From assembly GCA_963701095.1 (NCBI GenBank), contig OY969564.1, positions 2,528,001-2,592,000 on the forward strand: a DNA stretch of 64,000 bases. The letters are read 5' to 3'. Of this stretch, positions 7,904 to 34,167 are shown piece by piece; position 1 is the first letter of the stretch, and each line of letters begins with the position of its first letter. The notes beneath the pieces were generated by a model, which saw nothing but the letters and a program-made list of their open reading frames with translations, was not told the origin of the DNA and did not search any database. The stretch comes from an uncultured Methanoregulaceae archaeon (GTDB taxonomy: Archaea; Halobacteriota; Methanomicrobia; Methanomicrobiales; Methanospirillaceae). The position numbers and the translations under genes are program-made.

Positions 7904-7961
7904 TGCGAGGGATGGGATTCGAACCCAAGAACTCCTGCGAGACTAGGCCCTGAACCTAGCG
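7904..7961 (-). pseudogene. 3' portion of the split host tRNA-Leu(CAG); contains the left att core
   Basis: Minus strand reads cgctaggttCAGggcctagtctcgcaggagttcttgggttcgaatcccatccctcgca (anticodon arm, variable arm, T arm, acceptor 3' strand); 5' half absent. Confidence 0.92.
7945..7961. repeat. Left att core (17 bp) aggccctgaacctagcg
   Basis: Exact direct repeat of 15671-15687; spans the anticodon loop. Confidence 0.9.
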
Positions 7962-8002
7962 GTAAACAAAGGCACTATATCTTATGATGCAGATTAAGGA
8001 TC

Positions 8003-9164
8003 ATGGAAGATGTTTTGACAAAATACAAGCGGCTCGATCCGGTCAATCATCGGTATTTCGTTGATTATCTACGGTACCTCCAGCTTCGTAACATCCGGGA
8101 AACGACGATCACAACGAAACTCTGGAAGATCTACGGATACCTGATCTGGTCAGACTTCCGGGATGCGAAGACAGCACAACCGCAGGATCTCGAAAACTTC
8201 TATCTTCAGCGGAGAAAGGAGCGATCACCCATCACGGCATTTGGCGATATCCAAGAGCTCGCCCTGTTCTTCCGTTGGTTACTCCCGGACCGTGAGCTTG
8301 TCAAGTTCAAACCGCAGAAGCCCCGGGTCGATGTGCCGCCGGAAAAGGTCTTACAATCTGATAATATACGGGGAATACTGGAATACTGCGAGTCCCAGCG
8401 GGATCGTGCCCTGGTTGCCGTGGCATGGGACAGCGCGGCCCGGATCTCCGAGCTTCTCGATATCAATATCGGGCACGTCAACTTTGACCGGTACGGTGCG
8501 GTGATCAGCGTGAGTGGTAAGACCGGGCGCCGGAATATCCGGCTCGTGAGCTCAGGTACCGGACCTTCAAGCCTGGATCAATATCCACCCTCTCAAAGGC
8601 AACCCGGACGCCCCGCTCTTTGTCACCTCCCGGAGGCGTGGGAACACGTCTCTATCCCGGCTCACCGTGCGCCGGGTGCAGAACATCTTTGCCCGGCTGG
8701 GAGATCTTGCAGGTTGTCAAAAGGACACCAATCCCCACGCATTCCGGCACGGGCGTCTTACAATCCGGGGCAAGCAGCTTACCGAGTCCGAGCTCCGGGA
8801 GTATGCCGGATGGTCCAAAGGATCGAGCATGGCCCAGGTCTATGTGCATCTGTCCAGCCGGGATATCGACAATAAGATTCTGGCGGTGGATGGGGTCAAG
8901 CCGGAAGAAGAACCGGAGGCGGACCCGATGGCAGCGCAGATATGCCCCCGGTGCAAGAAATCGAACGCCCCGGACGCAATGTACTGCGACAGATGCAGCA
9001 TGGCCCTTAATGATGAAGCACTGGATAAGATCACCGCTCTACAAAATATCAATGAGGATCCGGACGCTCATGCGGAGTACGCGGTATGGCTGAAGGCTCT
9101 GAAAGACAATCCCGCTGGCCATTACGAGCGCCGGCAAGGCATGCGGAGTACGCGGTATGGCTGA
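8003..9164 (+). CDS. Tyrosine integrase with C-terminal zinc ribbon; +1 frameshift at ~8555
   Basis: Catalytic motifs SAARISE, GKTG, HAFRH, GW and QVYVH; CPRC..CDRC; removing one G at 8555/8556 joins ORFs 8003 and 8667 (RLVSS-VPDLQAWINIHP). Confidence 0.92.
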
Positions 9165-9177
9165 AGGCTCTGAAAGA
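9069..9177. repeat. Perfect 38-bp direct repeat x2 separated by a unique 33-bp insert
   Basis: catgcggagtacgcggtatggctgaaggctctgaaaga at 9069-9106 and 9140-9177; insert caatcccgctggccattacgagcgccggcaagg at 9107-9139. Confidence 0.95.
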
Positions 9178-9200
9178 GAAGCGGGGTTGATGGGGGATAT

Positions 9201-9782
9201 TCATCGCTTTTTCCGGTAAAATCTCCCGGATTCGTCCAGCTCATATTCCTTTTTAAACTCACGCCGCTCTTCTTCAGTATTCGCTGTTTTATAGACCTCT
9301 TTTCCCTTCTCAAGAACTATAAGCCTCCACGGCCCCTCATATTCGAGATATTCTTCCTTGTTTCGTGGGTGGAGGTCCTCGTATTCTTTTAATAATTTAT
9401 GATTTTTCAACACCTTTCTAGCGTCAAAAATTCTCTTTTCCTGTTCCACCCATTCCCTTGAGAGCGCCTCGCAGGCCATCTTGTACCCTTCTTCATAACT
9501 ACGGAATTCAAAGCGGGTAGGAGCCCCTTCCGGGAGCCGATACGTGGCGAGATTAGTACCTTTCCGGGTTTTCTTTTCAACGAGCCTTTCCTCTACAAGC
9601 TCTTTGAGCAGCCGGAACAGGGTAGCCTCTGGAATATCCGGATGTTTCAGATCCTTGGCCTTGCATCCCGGGTGATCGCGGATGAACGAGAGGATCCGGG
9701 GTATGTAATTTCCAACCTCTCCCCGCCGTCCGTTTTGAAACTTTATATACCGGTTGACCCATTCCAAGTCGATAGTTTCCAT
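9201..9782 (-). CDS. Winged-helix DNA-binding protein (candidate element repressor)
   Basis: RILSFIRDHPGCKAKDL..IPEATLFRLLKELVEERLVEKK wHTH pattern; divergent from the replication operon. Confidence 0.75.
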   Translation of the reverse strand: METIDLEWVNRYIKFQNGRRGEVGNYIPRILSFIRDHPGCKAKDLKHPDIPEATLFRLLKELVEERLVEKKTRKGTNLATYRLPEGAPTRFEFRSYEEGYKMACEALSREWVEQEKRIFDARKVLKNHKLLKEYEDLHPRNKEEYLEYEGPWRLIVLEKGKEVYKTANTEEERREFKKEYELDESGRFYRKKR

Positions 9783-9872
9783 AATTCAACGTCCTTATTA
9801 CTATCACTATGATATTATTTATGAGAGTTAATAACATTATGCCTACATAGAGAAAACCGGAGGAAAGCCTCA

Positions 9873-10019
9873 ATGAGAATTTGTTTAAATCTTCAAAAAG
9901 GACTCGTCGAACGAATCGATAAACAGCGTGGCGACATCCCACGCTCTCGGATTGTCGAACGGGCTCTTATGGAAAAGTATAGTGAAACTCCGGAAAAGGC
10001 AGTCGGGAGTGGTGAGTGA
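9873..10019 (+). CDS. 48-aa ribbon-helix-helix (CopG-like) protein, missing from the ORF track
   Basis: MRICLNLQKGLVERIDKQRGDIPRSRIVERALMEKYSETPEKAVGSGE; GGAGG at 9859-9863; TGATG coupling to the next ORF. Confidence 0.8.
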   Translation: MRICLNLQKGLVERIDKQRGDIPRSRIVERALMEKYSETPEKAVGSGE

Positions 10020-10434: not shown

Positions 10435-10958
10435 CAGCCTACGACAACATCCCGGAACCGCTAGTAGGAGCCCGCCGCTGGGTAACGTTCCGGGTAATCC
10501 CGCAGCCAGACGGATCGTTAAAAAAGATCCCGCTGACCATCCGGGGATCGATGGCAAGATCCGACACACCGGGAGACTGGTGTACCTTATCAGAGGTTCG
10601 CCGGGCGATCCAATTCGACATTGGCAATGCCGCTGCATTTGCTCTAGGCGAAGACTATCCGCTCCGGGTACTGGACCTCGACCACTGCATCGATGACCGG
10701 GGGAACCTATCGCCTCTAGCAGTACAGATCGTCAGCCGGGCCGGGGATACCTACATCGAAAAATCAGTGTCCGGTCACGGTCTACACGTTCTCGTATGGC
10801 GGTCTGAAAATAATTATCCGACCAACCCGGTCCCGGGTCTTGAAATCTATGGTGGGGCTCCGAGGTTCATAATCATGACCGGGAACTTGTGGGGGCCGAT
10901 CCCAACCAGCGATCCGGAATTCAACCGACAACTGGCATACGCGGAGGCACGAACTTGA
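10431..10958 (+). CDS. Stand-alone AEP primase-polymerase catalytic domain
   Basis: KKIP, LDLDHC (DxD), EKSVSGHGLHV (SxSGxGxH) and EIY..RFIIMTG motifs of phage/plasmid prim-pol domains; GTG overlaps the upstream TGA, GGAGG at 10420. Confidence 0.85.
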   Translation: MTAYDNIPEPLVGARRWVTFRVIPQPDGSLKKIPLTIRGSMARSDTPGDWCTLSEVRRAIQFDIGNAAAFALGEDYPLRVLDLDHCIDDRGNLSPLAVQIVSRAGDTYIEKSVSGHGLHVLVWRSENNYPTNPVPGLEIYGGAPRFIIMTGNLWGPIPTSDPEFNRQLAYAEART

Positions 10959-12886
10959 CAGCTGCCGCAGAAAACCCGACCGAACCGGAATACCGGCTGT
11001 GTTGTGACGATGTGCCGGAAGAGCCTGAAGAACTGGACGTGATGGAAGAACCGGACGAGGAGCCGGAAGAACAGGAAGAATGGGAAGAACAGACAACGGC
11101 CGCCAAAGTCACCAGAAAGCCGGAACCGGCTGTAATAATCAATCACACTACACAGCCGGCTAAAGTGCCGCAGAAGCAATCCGTGAGGCCAACACCGGCA
11201 CCTGTGGTAAATTCAGAGGCCGACCCACTGACCGGATTCTTATCGTCCCTGTCACCGTCATGTAAAGCCGAGGCTGTGAAGTATTCAGAAATTCCCGATA
11301 GGGACCTCAAGATCCCGACCGGGCAGAGCGCGACGGCAATCCTTGCGACATTCTGCAAGAAGTACGCAACCGTCCCGAAAGGCCAACGGAACCACACACT
11401 GTTTAAGTTGTCCTGCACTCTTCGCCGGTGCGGGTATGAGGAAAAAGACATCCTCGCGGGACTGTGGCAATTCTCCCGGGAGCATTGCAAGCCCCCGCAC
11501 AAGCAGAGCGACCGGAGTGATGTTGAGGAACTCACGCAACTCTCCAGGAGGGCCGCCCGCCATGTGCGGCCGGGTTTTCCTGTCGAGAAGGTGAAAGGGG
11601 AGCACACAACTGTGGCGAATGTATCGAACCCAGCCCCCGCCGCGATTGATTTGGATCCATGCGGGATTGATCCGGGAAACATCACCGGGGAAGAGATCAA
11701 AGATCTGATGTTAAAAGGGTTTCAGGCGAACTCCGCTGATATCGGATCGAATGATTCCTCCCTAATTTGCCTGTTGTCTTACATTGGAGGGCGAGAACTT
11801 ACCGGAGACGGACTCCACCTGAAAGTGTCCGGGGAATCACAAGGGGGGAAATCGATCACGATTGGTGCCGGACTGAACTGTTTACCCCCAGAGGACATAT
11901 ATGCCGGGGCCTGCACGCCGAAAGCGCCGATTTACGACAGCAGCCTTCAATCTGGAATCATCATAAAAATTGACGAATCCCAAAAATTAGAACCGGAGTT
12001 CTTGGCACTGATGAAGGAATCAGTATCGACGTTTCAAACCCCGGTCCTGTATCGAACGGTTATTGATAAAAAAACCGTAGTTAAACAGATCCCGCCGCGG
12101 ATTACCTGGGTGTTTGTCTCTGTCGATTCTATCGGGGACGAACAGGTGTTAAATCGCCTCTTCCCCCTCGGAGTTGATAGTAAGGAAAAATATCAGAACG
12201 TCACGGACTTCAGGCTGAAACGTAGGGAGGACGGGATTTCGAAAAATGCTGTGACTGACGATGTACTGCGAATACGTGCCGCCCTCCGACACTATCGTGA
12301 CAACCGGTTTAGGGTTCTGGTCCCATTTGCGTCACGGATCCGGTATAAGTCGCAGGTCAAAAGAGACCAGAGACTTCAGGAGTTTTTCGAAAATTGTCTG
12401 ATCTATCATGCAGCGCTTTGCTACCGGGAGCGGACCCACGATACCGGATCTGATGGAGTAATCACAGTTGAAGCAACCGAAGATGATTTTTATGCGGTCC
12501 TGAAACTACGGATCTTTAACCGACCCACAGAGGCAACCAACCGATTGAGTCCGTCCGAAATCCAACTGATCAAGGATATCGTGGCAAAAGGCCTCAATGG
12601 AACCACGTACCCCATCCCGCGGCAGGATCTGCTCAAGGTGGGGGCCGGTTATTCACAATCCCGACTATCCAACATCCTTAGGGGTCGCAACGGTGAAGAC
12701 AACGGGCTCTTGTGCAAGATCCCGGGATTCACTGAGGTGCAGGCGTCAACCGCAAACCGGGACGATTTGTGCCGATTCACTGAAAGGGCATATATCATCC
12801 CGGCAGAAATTTCAGATCTGGTACCGTCCAACGAGGGTATCGATGACCAATGTCAATCAATAGCCTGCCTGATCCCTCACGCCTGA
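10955..12886 (+). CDS. Replication protein: acidic linker, PriCT-like domain, P-loop (AAA+/MCM-like) helicase, C-terminal wHTH-like region
   Basis: PKGQRNHTLFKLSCTLRRCG..HCKPP (PriCT-1-like); Walker A GESQGGKS; Walker B IIKIDE; LNRLF Arg-finger-like; TTG at 10955 overlaps the primase TGA, GGAGG at 10943. Confidence 0.8.
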   Translation: MTAAAENPTEPEYRLCCDDVPEEPEELDVMEEPDEEPEEQEEWEEQTTAAKVTRKPEPAVIINHTTQPAKVPQKQSVRPTPAPVVNSEADPLTGFLSSLSPSCKAEAVKYSEIPDRDLKIPTGQSATAILATFCKKYATVPKGQRNHTLFKLSCTLRRCGYEEKDILAGLWQFSREHCKPPHKQSDRSDVEELTQLSRRAARHVRPGFPVEKVKGEHTTVANVSNPAPAAIDLDPCGIDPGNITGEEIKDLMLKGFQANSADIGSNDSSLICLLSYIGGRELTGDGLHLKVSGESQGGKSITIGAGLNCLPPEDIYAGACTPKAPIYDSSLQSGIIIKIDESQKLEPEFLALMKESVSTFQTPVLYRTVIDKKTVVKQIPPRITWVFVSVDSIGDEQVLNRLFPLGVDSKEKYQNVTDFRLKRREDGISKNAVTDDVLRIRAALRHYRDNRFRVLVPFASRIRYKSQVKRDQRLQEFFENCLIYHAALCYRERTHDTGSDGVITVEATEDDFYAVLKLRIFNRPTEATNRLSPSEIQLIKDIVAKGLNGTTYPIPRQDLLKVGAGYSQSRLSNILRGRNGEDNGLLCKIPGFTEVQASTANRDDLCRFTERAYIIPAEISDLVPSNEGIDDQCQSIACLIPHA

Positions 12887-13170: not shown

Positions 13171-13844
13171 AGACCCCCCCGGAATCCCCCCAAGCTCCTT
13201 ACCTCGAGAGTAACTCCGACAGTAAGTCCAAAACCCTGTTCCTTGTCACGAGGAGAGCACCGACTGTAAAAAAGAACCTGCAAGAATAATAACAACTTCT
13301 AAATATTATCCATGGTAATAATCCCAAAAATACCAACCATCCGCAGACGCGATGACCCGGACCCTCCTCTACCCATAACCATCAATGTTTTTTCAAGCAC
13401 ATTCCAAAAATGGTATGCGTCTCAATTTTGGAGGTCAACCGGGCCGTAACCGGGTGATAATCGCTATACGGGCTCCGTTTGCCAAAAGTCCCGAGAGATA
13501 TTGCCCCGATTGATTCCTGGACCTGTGTCCAGGGTGCCGGGCAAAGCCCTTGGTAGCTGTGGTCCTGGTCCCGGGCCCTGCCGAGCGGTGCCCTCTCACG
13601 TCGAACTGTCGCAGAATAGTTGTTCTGCGCAATGTGACCCCTCTATATAGTGCACGTCGTAGCGTATGCATTGCGTAGAATAATGATGAATAATAGTGGG
13701 TGTACAAGTGCACTTGTTCTAGGTTCACATCCGGAAGATAGAGCGCGATATATGCCAAGACCCTCGTACAAAAATCCGGGAATTTTCACCTTTTTTAGGC
13801 CTACCCGCTTCTACAAAAATCTTAAAAAAATGGGTTTTGGGAGA

Positions 13845-14159: not shown

Positions 14160-14186
14160 GTGTTCAACCGGTTCACCGTGTTCACA
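14160..14186. promoter_or_regulatory. Three tandem 9-bp repeats (core GTTCA) between divergent genes
   Basis: gtgttcaac-cggttcacc-gtgttcaca; TATA-like TTTATAT at 14214-14220. Confidence 0.5.
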
Positions 14187-14247
14187 ACTGCATTTGTTTT
14201 AACTAAAGTAAAGTTTATATTGGATGGTGCAGTATAGACTATTCATT

Positions 14248-14415
14248 ATGAGAACCATCGTCAGAGGAGAGAAAACGTACTCCTTAACCTCCGTGGCAAT
14301 CCCTGCGGATTTGAAGGCCCGGGCACAGGATCACGATGTCAACATGACCCAGGTCTGTGTGAATGCACTTGAACGGGAAGTCGAACGTCTGGAGAAGGCA
14401 GGGGTGCCGGCATGA
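14248..14415 (+). CDS. RHH protein (CcdA/VapB antitoxin-like)
   Basis: TSVAIPADLKARAQDHDVNMTQVCVNALEREV; ATG ~28 bp after a TATA-like box. Confidence 0.75.
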   Translation: MRTIVRGEKTYSLTSVAIPADLKARAQDHDVNMTQVCVNALEREVERLEKAGVPA

Positions 14416-14585
14416 GATCTGAAGAGCCCCAGACCGCTTCCGATGTGTGGTCCATCGACCGCAAACGGCAGGCAGAGACAGCCCTCCGGGAAAACGAAGC
14501 GTACCAGCGCGGTATGCTTGAAGGAATGCGGAAGTTTAACAGTACCCTGTTGAACCCCGAAAACAATCAGGAGATGGTGCAGTAA
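14412..14585 (+). CDS. 57-aa hypothetical protein, missing from the ORF track
   Basis: MRSEEPQTASDVWSIDRKRQAETALRENEAYQRGMLEGMRKFNSTLLNPENNQEMVQ; ATGA overlap upstream, next ATG 1 bp after the stop. Confidence 0.65.
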   Translation: MRSEEPQTASDVWSIDRKRQAETALRENEAYQRGMLEGMRKFNSTLLNPENNQEMVQ

Positions 14586-14586
14586 T

Positions 14587-15159
14587 ATGGCCGTTTCCGA
14601 AATGCAGATCGAAATTCTGCTCCGGCCCGTCCTTGCCGAGATGGAAAGAGGTTTTTTTAAAGTCGCCGATAAGCTCCAGCGGGACCAACTGGCGATCAAT
14701 GTTCAGGAGATTGAGGCAGGGTTTAGGAACGGCCAAAAAGCAACCCTGGCACAATACGCGGGCCTCAAATACTACAAAGACGACGACCCCGAACTGCGGG
14801 GCCTTCCAAAAGGGAACCGTAATATGGAACGGGCAAAGTTCAATAAGGGTGTCCGTGATGTCCTGCGAGCGATCCGGTGGTACCGCAAGCACCCAAACGC
14901 AACCGAACGAGATCTAATCCAGCTCCGGCAGATACTGCGGGATTTCCCGTCGACTCTGGATATCCGGGCGATTCCGACACTGGTGATGTGGGGTGATGTA
15001 CTTACGATGCTATCACGGGCCCAGACCGATGCAAAATTCGATCTCGATATGGAGGAGGACGCAGCTGATGAGAATATTCTCAAACCCCGGCATCCCGGTT
15101 CAAACCCGGAGGACGACGTGATGATCCGCAAGACTGATTTCCCGGAGTTAGACCGATAA
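14587..15159 (+). CDS. Hypothetical protein (190 aa)
   Basis: Operon context with tight spacing; no recognisable motif. Confidence 0.7.
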   Translation: MAVSEMQIEILLRPVLAEMERGFFKVADKLQRDQLAINVQEIEAGFRNGQKATLAQYAGLKYYKDDDPELRGLPKGNRNMERAKFNKGVRDVLRAIRWYRKHPNATERDLIQLRQILRDFPSTLDIRAIPTLVMWGDVLTMLSRAQTDAKFDLDMEEDAADENILKPRHPGSNPEDDVMIRKTDFPELDR

Positions 15160-15269
15160 TGCCCGCAAAACCGATTCGGTGCAGACAATGCGGACGGGTG
15201 TTCGCGGACCGGATGACCTTAATCCTGCACAAACCCTGTAAGGGCGTACCAGTCAAAACCAAACCATGA
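15159..15269 (+). CDS. 36-aa C2HC/C2H2-type zinc-finger microprotein, missing from the ORF track
   Basis: MPAKPIRCRQCGRVFADRMTLILHKPCKGVPVKTKP (CxxC-x3-F-x5-L-x2-H-x2-C); TAATG coupling. Confidence 0.7.
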   Translation: MPAKPIRCRQCGRVFADRMTLILHKPCKGVPVKTKP

Positions 15270-15528
15270 CCGGGGGGGCGAGCGGGTTTGTCACATTTTC
15301 CCGCGATGAACCCCGTGCCATCAAACCCCGTTACTACATTTTTTACACTCCCTGGGGGGGAAATTACAACCCCCGGGGGAATCGTGCCTTTTACCACAAT
15401 TGACTACCACCAGCATCGACAGCGGCGCCTCATAGACGCGTTTGCGCGGCGTTTCTCGTGCCGGATAGGTAAAAGTATGTAACAAGTGGAAAAAAGGCCG
15501 GTCTTAAGAGAAACAAACTTCAGAAAAG

Positions 15529-15613
15529 TGCGAGGGATGGGATTCGAACCCAAGAACTCCTACGAGATTAGGCCCTGAACCTAACGCCTTTGACCTGGCT
15601 TGGCTACCCTCGC
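15529..15613 (-). tRNA. Complete tRNA-Leu(CAG), 85 nt, inside the element
   Basis: gcgagggtagccaagccaggtcaaaggcgttaggttCAGggcctaatctcgtaggagttcttgggttcgaatcccatccctcgca folds as a cloverleaf with a long variable arm; TTTATA ~42 bp upstream. Confidence 0.96.
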
Positions 15614-15670
15614 CCAACTCTTTTTTGAGGGATCTTGTTTTTGTGCGATGCAGCGTATAAACCCTGTCCA

Positions 15671-15714
15671 AGGCCCTGAACCTAGCGCCGTTGACCTGGC
15701 TTGGCTACCCTCGC
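15671..15714 (-). pseudogene. 5' portion of the split host tRNA-Leu(CAG); contains the right att core 15671-15687
   Basis: Minus strand reads gcgagggtagccaagccaggtcaacggcgctaggttCAGggcct then diverges; TATA-like TTTATTAAA at 15738-15746. Confidence 0.92.
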
Positions 15715-33001: not shown

Positions 33002-34167
33002 CCGTTCAGACGCTTGCCGGAAAAGAGATTGTGATTGGTGTGACCGGAAGCATCGCGGCTGTCGAAACGGTCAAATTAATTCATGCGTTTCGCAGAAAAG
33101 GCGCACAAGTCCAGCCTGTTATGAGCCGGGCGGCTCAGGACATCATCCAACCTGATGCACTAACGTATGCAAGCGGCAGGCAGACAATTACGCGCCTCAC
33201 GGGGCTGGTAGAACATGTAACCTGCTGCGGAGACGGTGGAAGCGCATCTCTTCTGCTCATCGCTCCCTGTACAGCAAATACTCTTGGGAAAATTGCATGC
33301 GGAATTGATGATACCCCGGTTACAACTTTTGCGACGACAGCTTTGGGGAGTGGGATGCCGGTCATTGTGGTGCCTGCGATGCACTACAGTATGTTCCGGC
33401 ACCCGGCAGTATCCGGGAATATCAGGACTCTTGAATCATGGGGGGTCGGGTTTGCAGGTCCAAGAGTTGAGGAAGGAAAAGCAAAGATAGCTGATATCGA
33501 CGAAATTATTCTTCGTTCCGAACGAGCCATCCTTGGCAGACCCCTGGCCGGGAAAACCGTCCTTGTCACAAGCGGCGCCTGCCGGGAACCAATAGATGAC
33601 GTGCGGATACTGACAACCCGGTCGAGTGGCCGGATGGGACAGGAGATTGCCCTTGAAGCGTACCGGCTTGGCGCCGCAGTAACTATTATCCATAACGGAA
33701 CCCTTCCGTGCGTGGACAATGTTTTTGTGGAAACGGCAGGGGAGATGAAGCAAGCAGTTGATGTGTATATCAAAAAAGACAATCCTGATTTGTATATCAG
33801 TGCAGCAGCCATATCAGATTTTGCGCCGAAGAGAAGGGAAGGGAAAATCAAAAGCGGGAAACTGGCTACGATTGATCTTTTCCCGCTTCCAAAACTTATT
33901 GATCCTCTCATGGAAACAAAAGGAACGCGGGTGGTAGCCTTTAAAATCGGGAGAAATCCCCTTCCAGAGGCAAAGGCGTTGCTTGAACGTGGCGCATGGA
34001 TGGTGATTACCAATACCCCGGAGAGTATGGGGACGGCTACCGGCGCCTACCGCGTGGTGACCGGTTCGGACAAAAAAGGCAAGCCCGTTTCCGGAACAAA
34101 AGAAGAGATTGCAGACCGGATCTGGCAGGCTATTTTGTCGGGCATAAAAAGAAACGATGGCGTATGA
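32998..34167 (+). CDS. coaBC: Phosphopantothenoylcysteine decarboxylase/ligase
   Basis: GVTGSIAA, APCTANT, PAMH, EPIDDVR..SSGRMG and AAISDF motifs. Confidence 0.95.
   Translation: MTVQTLAGKEIVIGVTGSIAAVETVKLIHAFRRKGAQVQPVMSRAAQDIIQPDALTYASGRQTITRLTGLVEHVTCCGDGGSASLLLIAPCTANTLGKIACGIDDTPVTTFATTALGSGMPVIVVPAMHYSMFRHPAVSGNIRTLESWGVGFAGPRVEEGKAKIADIDEIILRSERAILGRPLAGKTVLVTSGACREPIDDVRILTTRSSGRMGQEIALEAYRLGAAVTIIHNGTLPCVDNVFVETAGEMKQAVDVYIKKDNPDLYISAAAISDFAPKRREGKIKSGKLATIDLFPLPKLIDPLMETKGTRVVAFKIGRNPLPEAKALLERGAWMVITNTPESMGTATGAYRVVTGSDKKGKPVSGTKEEIADRIWQAILSGIKRNDGV

Follow-up and report, generated by a model that had tools for sequence, protein, structure and literature searches.

A probable scar of off-target CRISPR spacer integration, carrying viral DNA, in an integrase gene of a methanogenic archaeon

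The stretch of DNA analysed here (the window) comprises 64,000 nucleotides of an uncultured Methanoregulaceae archaeon and corresponds to C1:2528001-2592000 of a single-contig genome of 2.63 Mb. It contains a gene encoding a tyrosine recombinase (integrase) with a C-terminal zinc-ribbon-like tail (8003..9190, + strand), in the 3' end of which a perfect 38-bp direct repeat occurs twice (9069-9106 and 9140-9177, both + strand; start-to-start spacing 71), stretching to 41 nt if one mismatch is allowed. The 33 bp between the two copies (9107-9139, + strand) are unique. Copy 1 consists of integrase coding sequence and is referred to below as the neo-repeat, and copy 2 passes into what was originally the 3' terminus of the gene (GAGAAGCGGGGTTGA, with the stop codon at 9188-9190). 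The evidence presented here argues that these 71 bp are very probably the scar of an off-target spacer integration of one kind or another by a CRISPR system, the spacer being a fragment of a virus that infects this genus of methanogens.

With the insert in place the integrase frame reads ...ALKDNPAGHYERRQGMRSTRYG and ends at a stop codon at 9162-9164; removal of the 71 bp gives ...HAEYAVWLKALKEKRG with the stop at 9188-9190, which is the same ending as that of an intact paralogue located at C1:316037-317152 (...WLKARKEKMV before the stop; match to PF00589 at 1.6e-14) and of a homologue in the genome G028. A preliminary description of this DNA, made from its letters, had reported the 38-33-38 structure as well as the clean C-terminus obtained upon removal of 71 bp, and both observations were reproduced. 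The whole genome was scanned for exact repeats of at least 22 bp at periods of 45-110 and, subsequently, for repeats with 2 mismatches allowed in 28 positions at periods of 55-94. Besides the CRISPR array and tandem repeats in protein genes, only two repeat-insert-repeat structures were found in the 2.63 Mb. The 38-33-38 structure is real and far beyond chance.

That description had also seen no match to the insert in the window, a result that now extends to the whole genome, where no other copy of the insert exists with up to 7 mismatches and the longest common substring does not exceed 13 nt; these figures rule out a templated origin of the insert from nearby DNA or from elsewhere in the host genome. 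A simple tandem duplication or slippage was rejected as well, as the insert is no copy of the flanking sequence and Tandem Repeats Finder reports nothing at the structure. The footprint of a transposon or insertion sequence (IS) was discarded on the grounds that the insert derives from within a viral open reading frame (ORF) and is collinear with the virus, and that inverted repeats were not reported there.

The origin of the insert was traced through metagenomic data. Twenty sequencing runs held part of positions 8700-9500, and four of them, belonging to four studies (X1, X2, X6, and X13), were compared by means of their Logan contigs, which attest to the presence of a sequence and not to its absence. 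In X2, X6, and X13, contigs of 1177, 1703, and 1181 nt, respectively, match positions 9104-9139 only, with 1-2 differences, and carry unrelated sequence on both sides. The depth of these viral contigs (42, 259, and 7) was 2-7 times that of the host in the same runs (10, 38, and ~3). A 22-mer taken from the left flank of the Logan contigs led to one IMG/VR contig of 41,537 bp (G132), to which both 30-nt flanks of the X6 and X13 viral contigs are identical. The insert corresponds to G132 1838-1873, agreeing with it at 33 of 36 bases (E = 6.9e-07 vs the window); the three differences, all within the 33 bp, are in central positions. The contig displays 127-bp terminal repeats and encodes a large terminase subunit (phrog_2, 1.9e-49), a helicase, a RecT-like protein and a transposase-family protein (phrog_506), and can on these grounds be classed as a tailed archaeal virus. 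The region corresponding to the insert is inside an ORF of 247 amino acids and collinear with its surroundings, indicating that the transfer went from virus to host and that the fragment was taken from the interior of a gene and not from the end of an element. The insert is thus foreign, as had been proposed, and the concern raised in the preliminary description, that it might match the end of another element recombined at this site, does not apply to a piece of the interior of a viral ORF.

The comparison with the donor also sets the limits of the insertion. The trinucleotide AGA precedes the insert in the virus as well as in the host, leaving an ambiguity of 3 nt at the left junction: the last three nucleotides of copy 1 could belong to the insert, which measures 33 bp or, if it starts at 9104, up to 36 bp. 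Because of this shared AGA, the duplication has to be given as 35-38 bp and the insert as 33-36 bp. At the right junction virus and host have zero bases in common.

Exact searches for the insert gave no match in viral_contigs (all 33 nt), genome_contigs (24-mer) or metagenome_contigs (22-mer), and it was not found with up to 3 mismatches in the 107 other genomes of the genus; only the flanks of the Logan contigs led to the donor. PHROGs returned no match for 9 of the 13 viral ORFs of G132. As an observation on the virus itself, an ORF of G132 that is open at the contig start (L011:2-745) contains a domain of the ADP-ribosyltransferase-exoenzyme type (PF03496, E = 7e-07, 29.2 bits, cut-off 23.4), which is unusual for a virus of methanogens.

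The uninserted allele was sought both in homologous genes and in natural populations. The 71 bp are absent from the paralogue (94% identical) and from the G028 homologue (86% identical), both of which end as the window does after repeat copy 2. In the read data, a 1464-nt contig of X2 and a 2349-nt contig of X6 join position 9068 to 9140, skipping exactly 71 bp, with 1 and 3 differences from the window, respectively. Over as many as 730 aligned bases this uninserted DNA thus departs from the window at 1-3 positions, and it comes from two studies other than that of X1. No contig bridging the insertion site was present in X13. The inserted allele was recovered in X1, where a contig of 93 nt spans 9077-9169 with zero differences. 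The duplication that the preliminary description wished to see in reads is therefore present, and the uninserted allele exists in homologues and in near-identical natural strains (X2 and X6); as X1 may be the source sample of the genome, its contig excludes an assembler artefact only. The insertion is polymorphic, its empty site existing naturally in near-identical DNA, and it is recent, since the two copies of the repeat are still identical.

The genome carries a single CRISPR array (C1:147511-151503), composed of 61 repeats of 32 bp that end in TTGAAAT and 60 spacers. It adjoins a type I-C operon with cas1, cas2, and cas4, the Cas1c of which scores 487.7 bits (cut-off 385). All 60 spacers measure 33-36 bp (12 of 33, 38 of 34, 7 of 35, and 3 of 36 bp), resulting in a period of 65-68. 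Five out of the 60 match G132, among them the newest, leader-proximal spacer 1: spacers 1, 10, and 19 are exact, spacer 9 has one mismatch and spacer 16 aligns once its register is shifted by 1 nt. The corresponding protospacers in G132 are preceded on their 5' side by TTC in four of the five cases; in the fifth, GTT is followed by C across the protospacer boundary. The strongest argument for a CRISPR adaptation complex as the maker of the scar is that the host samples this same virus with fragments of the size of the insert. The preliminary description had made its reading dependent on the occurrence of Cas1 in the host lineage; what was found is an active-looking adaptation module whose array targets the donor virus.

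A second structure of this kind is located at C1:139132-139231, ~450 bp upstream of cas3 of the I-C operon, where a perfect duplication of 33 bp surrounds a unique insert of 34 bp (period 67), reproducing the geometry of the I-C array. The repeat of this second scar is absent from the 107 other genomes of the genus (up to 3 mismatches), and the searches did not find a donor for its insert. Its single metagenome match (L028:1454-1553, - strand) has an identical structure and belongs to the same locus of the same organism. The second scar is probably an off-target integration by the resident I-C module. If it is indeed a misfire of that system, the I-C ruler was maintained off target, and the scar with a duplication of 35-38 bp looks like the product of another enzyme, as far as a single case can tell.

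Within the genus, cas2 was detected in 24 of 108 genomes, at 29 loci. A 37-bp repeat is associated with 12 of these loci; in 11 it ends in ..GGATTGAAAC (period 69-75) and in one it has another sequence (period 71-73). Nine loci, including that of the genome under study, possess 32-bp repeats of the I-C type (period 64-69) and three a 30-bp repeat; two have partly resolved arrays, and three are short loci in which no array is present. The 37-bp system of G117 was typed as I-B on the basis of its Cas7/Csh2 (214.4 bits, cut-off 171.55) and of a Cas5b fused to Cas3 (113.5 bits, cut-off 97), and its locus also contains Cas8b-like, Cas1, and Cas4 genes. The 11 full I-B arrays hold 572 spacers, with 126 of 34 nt, 191 of 35, 162 of 36, 63 of 37 and one of 33. 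The length of the insert (33-36 bp) coincides with the I-C spacer range, which is also the range of 480 of these 572 I-B spacers. The scar can be parsed as 37 + 34 = 71, the 35-38 bp of the duplication taking in 37, and in this register the duplicated segment ends in ..CTCTGAAAG (..TGAAAG) compared with ..GATTGAAAC (..TTGAAAC) in the I-B repeat. With their 37-bp repeats and 34-37-bp spacers, the type I-B systems of the genus fit the scar geometry better than the resident I-C system does.

The same virus group has been met by these systems. Among I-B spacers, three from G121, one from G106 and one from G115 match G132 with 3-5 mismatches, and one genome (G019) matches weakly; the 5' flanks of the I-B protospacers are TTG (three times), TTA, TGA, and GCA, none of which stands beside the protospacer of the insert. 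Taken across both types, five further species of the genus (G113 L065, G121 L084, G115 L090, G106 L091, and G019 L093; one I-C and four I-B array) possess spacers that match G132 with 3-6 mismatches, suggesting a virus group with a genus-wide host range or history.

In addition to the I-C operon, the genome encodes a stand-alone Cas1 (C1:1216670-1217611, - strand; L003:10668-11612), an intact protein of 314 amino acids that reaches only the generic TIGR00287 model (137.9 bits). No cas genes lie beside it, and neither a Cas2, a Cas4 nor an array goes with it. It is found as a single copy in 86 of the 108 genomes of the genus (46-90% identity) and in 47 of the 50 high-quality ones, with or without cas2. 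By the identity of this protein the closest genomes are G125 (90%), G117 (87%), G114 (81%), and G121 (77%); I-B arrays occur in G117 and G121, and at the end of a G125 contig there is a cas2 whose score places it in the I-B class. The I-B locus of G117 sits between fmdB and pyrD, genes that in the present genome are 25 kb apart, in a rearranged region where nothing of I-B is left. A search of this genome for remnants of the 30-bp repeat gave chance-level matches only, at 10 mismatches.

The scar lies on an integrated element of ~7.7 kb. The left end (attL, 7904..7958) is a 55-bp copy of part of a tRNA-Leu gene, in direct repeat with 15529-15583 (96% identity), and the tRNA-Leu(CAG) gene (15528..15613, - strand) is both the integration target and the right end. 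A replication-type gene with a PriCT_1 primase C-terminal domain (10889..12886, + strand; PF08708, 1.8e-07) marks it as a putative small integrative plasmid-like element. Two stretches of the element (13563-13662 and 13714-13799) are 85-86% identical to G132 33549-33848, from which it appears that the element and the donor virus exchange or share DNA. Pfam gave no match for six small ORFs of the element, among them those at 13563-13799, and the exact 28-nt pattern of its 3' junction had no other copy in viral_contigs or genome_contigs. The intact paralogue of the integrase mentioned above belongs to a second, related integrated element (C1:316037-317152 and about 323.8 kb), where it lies beside another tRNA-like sequence; this second element has further segments 84-97% identical to the element in the window (window 14179-15714).

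Regarding the integrase gene, the copy in the window contains an extra G at 8555/8556 that shifts its frame. Elsewhere in the assembly, frameshifts split pyrD (C1:967514-968399), which is probably essential, cas3 (L004:3586-5803) and a paaK-like gene (L003:11767-14297). This suggests indel errors in this single-contig assembly, the apparent pseudogenes of which should not be taken at face value; since pyrD, cas3, and the paaK-like gene are also split, the extra G was not trusted as a real lesion. If it is an error, the scar swaps only the last four codons of the integrase, and the enzyme may still work. The scar is without CRISPR function and changes only those last codons. A spliced or bypassed 71-nt element was also considered and dropped, because neither for the neo-repeat nor for 9050-9195 does the predicted RNA fold surpass those of shuffled sequences (z -1.86 and -0.82, respectively). 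In the 9050-9195 fold the outer stem is formed by positions 9107-9116 of the insert, complementary at 9 of 10 positions to 9181-9190, just past repeat copy 2; with ~0.1-0.2 such pairs expected by chance according to our estimate, this pairing is probably a coincidence.

Catalysis by Cas1-Cas2 is what we infer from the sequence. In the proposed course of events, an adaptation complex of the Cas1-Cas2 type would have held a ~34-bp fragment of the tailed virus and attacked both strands of the 3' end of the integrase gene ~37 bp apart, and gap repair would then have left a copy of the sequence lying between the attack sites on each flank of the fragment. The catalyst would have been of the I-B type and, because the genome under study lacks an I-B module, would have acted while the small integrative element resided in a different host, or else in a recent ancestor that still possessed I-B; the location of the scar on the 7.7-kb element is what makes another host conceivable. 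This more specific reading, i.e. an off-target integration with a ruler of I-B type (37 bp), taking place either in a different host or prior to the loss of I-B, is put forward tentatively, with chances that we place somewhat below even.

Several observations weigh against it, against recognition of the target site or against the resident I-C system. The duplication of 35-38 bp differs from the 32 bp of the resident I-C repeat and the period of 71 falls outside that of the array (none of the 60 units, all at 65-68, reaches it). No protospacer adjacent motif (PAM) is present at the protospacer in either orientation, the flanks being GTTATCGAGA and GGAGACGCGA up to the protospacer boundary (..TCGAGA and ..GCGA). 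The target resembles the I-C repeat at the level of chance, with 10% of random genome windows aligning as well, and its in-register identity to the 37-bp repeat is 14/37 only. As to an I-B origin, the genome contains no I-B adaptation genes (its Cas1 genes are two, the I-C and the stand-alone one, and its cas2 is one), tblastn revealed no I-B genes in it and the 37-bp repeat was not found in it with up to 10 substitutions. The I-B reading would consequently need either a transfer of the element or a recent loss of I-B, both of which we infer. Furthermore, the inserted allele was found in X1 only, which may be the source sample of the genome, and the AGA that virus and host share at the left end of the insert might hint at microhomology.

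The proposal of the preliminary description, a natural off-target Cas1-Cas2 scar, is nonetheless supported, as the checks run came out in favour of it or were compatible with it. Two of the comparisons it suggested gave divided results. Repeat and spacer sizes agree as to spacer length and as to the 37-bp repeats at 12 of the 29 cas2 loci of the genus, but the resident repeat of 32 bp is incompatible in size; and the search with the insert led to the donor virus, but to a protospacer devoid of a PAM.

Different makers of the scar have to be weighed against the I-B-type complex. One candidate is the resident I-C Cas4-Cas1-Cas2, which might have acted in this strain on a viral prespacer without PAM, placing its second attack 3-6 bp beyond its 32-bp ruler in a target that lacks the anchor motifs of the repeat. 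It is the only complete adaptation module of the genome (Cas1c at 487.7 bits, single cas2), five spacers of its array are directed against this virus, the newest of them being 36 nt long, and the 33-36 bp of the insert equal its spacer range exactly; its repeat also ends in TTGAAAT and the inserted allele is found only where this strain is. The geometry is less accommodating, with a duplication of at least 35 vs 32 bp and a period of 71 vs 65-68 in 60/60 units, and the second scar (33-bp duplication, period 67), although a single case, keeps the I-C ruler off target. On this point it is of relevance that motif-anchored rulers set the size of the duplication, which ranged over 29-33 bp for a 30-bp repeat once the spacing of the motifs was altered, as far as the available portions of the reports indicate (PMC4872114; PMC5039180), so that a shift of +3 (35 + 36) is conceivable. 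The TTC PAM, present for 4 of the 5 mapped spacers, is missing here, and the Cas4 of a I-C system is highly PAM-specific according to the accessible part of one study (PMC6519985). A resident I-C origin is therefore regarded as possible but doubtful. Alternatively, no Cas1 would have been involved and a viral fragment, e.g. a degradation product, would have been captured during the repair of a staggered break or a template switch in replication, the CRISPR-like sizes being coincidental. The 3-nt AGA identity of virus and host at the left junction is what such a capture might leave, and it would go along with the missing PAM, a target that is not repeat-like and a duplication unlike the resident repeat in length. 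The right junction has no microhomology, however, and we know of no repair route giving a flanking duplication of 35-38 bp together with a clean, non-templated insert. Capture would also have to reconcile as coincidences an insert exactly within the 33-36-bp spacer window, a duplication plus insert equal to a common I-B period, a donor virus repeatedly sampled by the CRISPR arrays of the genus and the occurrence of just two such structures in 2.6 Mb, both of them spacer-sized; it is considered unlikely.

The stand-alone Cas1 (C1:1216670-1217611) might itself have catalysed the integration, as this second, divergent Cas1 is present and intact, has neighbours other than cas genes and is conserved in 86/108 genomes of the genus. 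In its boldest form, this idea makes the protein an active integrase independent of a PAM, which would paste ~34-bp pieces of invading DNA into ordinary sites with a stagger of ~37 bp, the scar being its first visible product, a suggestion to which we assign a very small chance. If true, it would explain the non-I-C ruler and the absent PAM, both of which are foreign to any resident CRISPR system. Nothing ties the gene to the scar, though: it is a vertically inherited single copy in most genomes, yet only two scars occur here, one of them with I-C geometry, and the sole cas2 of the genome resides in the I-C operon. Its participation as catalyst is judged highly improbable. The preliminary description had left room for a one-spacer mini-array, which as a functional unit carried by a mobile element to target a virus is hardly credible. 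The spacer does match a virus of the host, the unit is inside a gene that is probably transcribed and a small hairpin (-10.8 kcal/mol) is predicted for the RNA of the neo-repeat, but an equally good fold is reached by 14 of 200 shuffles. The repeat consists of integrase coding sequence, corresponding to no CRISPR repeat of the genome or the genus nor significantly resembling any; the Rfam scan of 8000-10000 was without match, the protospacer has no PAM and the uninserted allele is the common one. A working mini-array can in practice be dismissed.

New CRISPR arrays are believed to arise in part through off-target spacer integration, which is also a cost of carrying adaptation modules. Natural examples whose history is known are, to our knowledge, rare. 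In the present case the history is available in the form of an empty site in sister strains, a donor virus, canonical spacers that both the host and its relatives hold against that virus, and a second scar of different geometry. Two features deserve attention, namely a ruler pointing to a CRISPR type that is absent from the genome and a protospacer without PAM. The mismatch of the ruler with the resident system and its match with a congeneric I-B system suggest that scars can record CRISPR systems met by a mobile element, and they might thus serve to trace the hosts it has had. Judging by the missing PAM, prespacers that stray may be those that were poorly processed.

Transposons and casposons duplicate their target through staggered strand transfer followed by gap repair, the duplications made by IS and casposons being much shorter than 35-38 bp. 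The scar resembles such insertions in that its target would have been duplicated by the staggered strand transfer and gap repair proposed above; unlike them, its insert of 33-36 bp has neither terminal inverted repeats nor a gene and derives from the interior of a viral ORF. Mini-CRISPR arrays of archaeal viruses and plasmids hold one or two spacers against a competing virus, bordered by a genuine host repeat for Cas processing. They share with the present structure a single spacer on a mobile element matching a virus; here, in contrast, the repeat is duplicated coding sequence. The closest parallel is the non-canonical integration by Cas1-Cas2 giving rise to "neo-CRISPR" loci, which was reportedly obtained with the type I-E system of E. 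coli upon over-production of Cas1-Cas2 by Nivala, Shipman and Church 2018 (Nat Microbiol 3:310). As in those loci, a foreign insert of spacer length is accompanied by a duplication of ordinary DNA of repeat length, outside arrays and in a lineage with active adaptation modules. The differences are that the case described here is natural, that its donor virus can be named and its empty site is seen in sister strains, and that its ruler mismatches the resident system and matches one of congeners. Natural evidence for the phenomenon is said to be only circumstantial and to come from two other species, according to the accessible part of a preprint citing that work. In the type I-B system of Haloarcula hispanica (PMC4872114) and the type I-E system of E. 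coli (PMC5039180), changes in the repeat motifs of engineered arrays shift the size of the duplication by 1-3 bp, as stated in the portions of these reports at hand. Within the same limits, these systems agree with the present scar in that the anchoring position sets the size of the duplication, so that targets other than repeats can yield off-size duplications, and they differ from it in that the deviation from the resident 32-bp repeat is here 3-6 bp and occurred at a non-repeat site. Altogether, off-target integration is a phenomenon known from the laboratory, and the locus described here is very probably a natural case of it for which the donor virus can be named.

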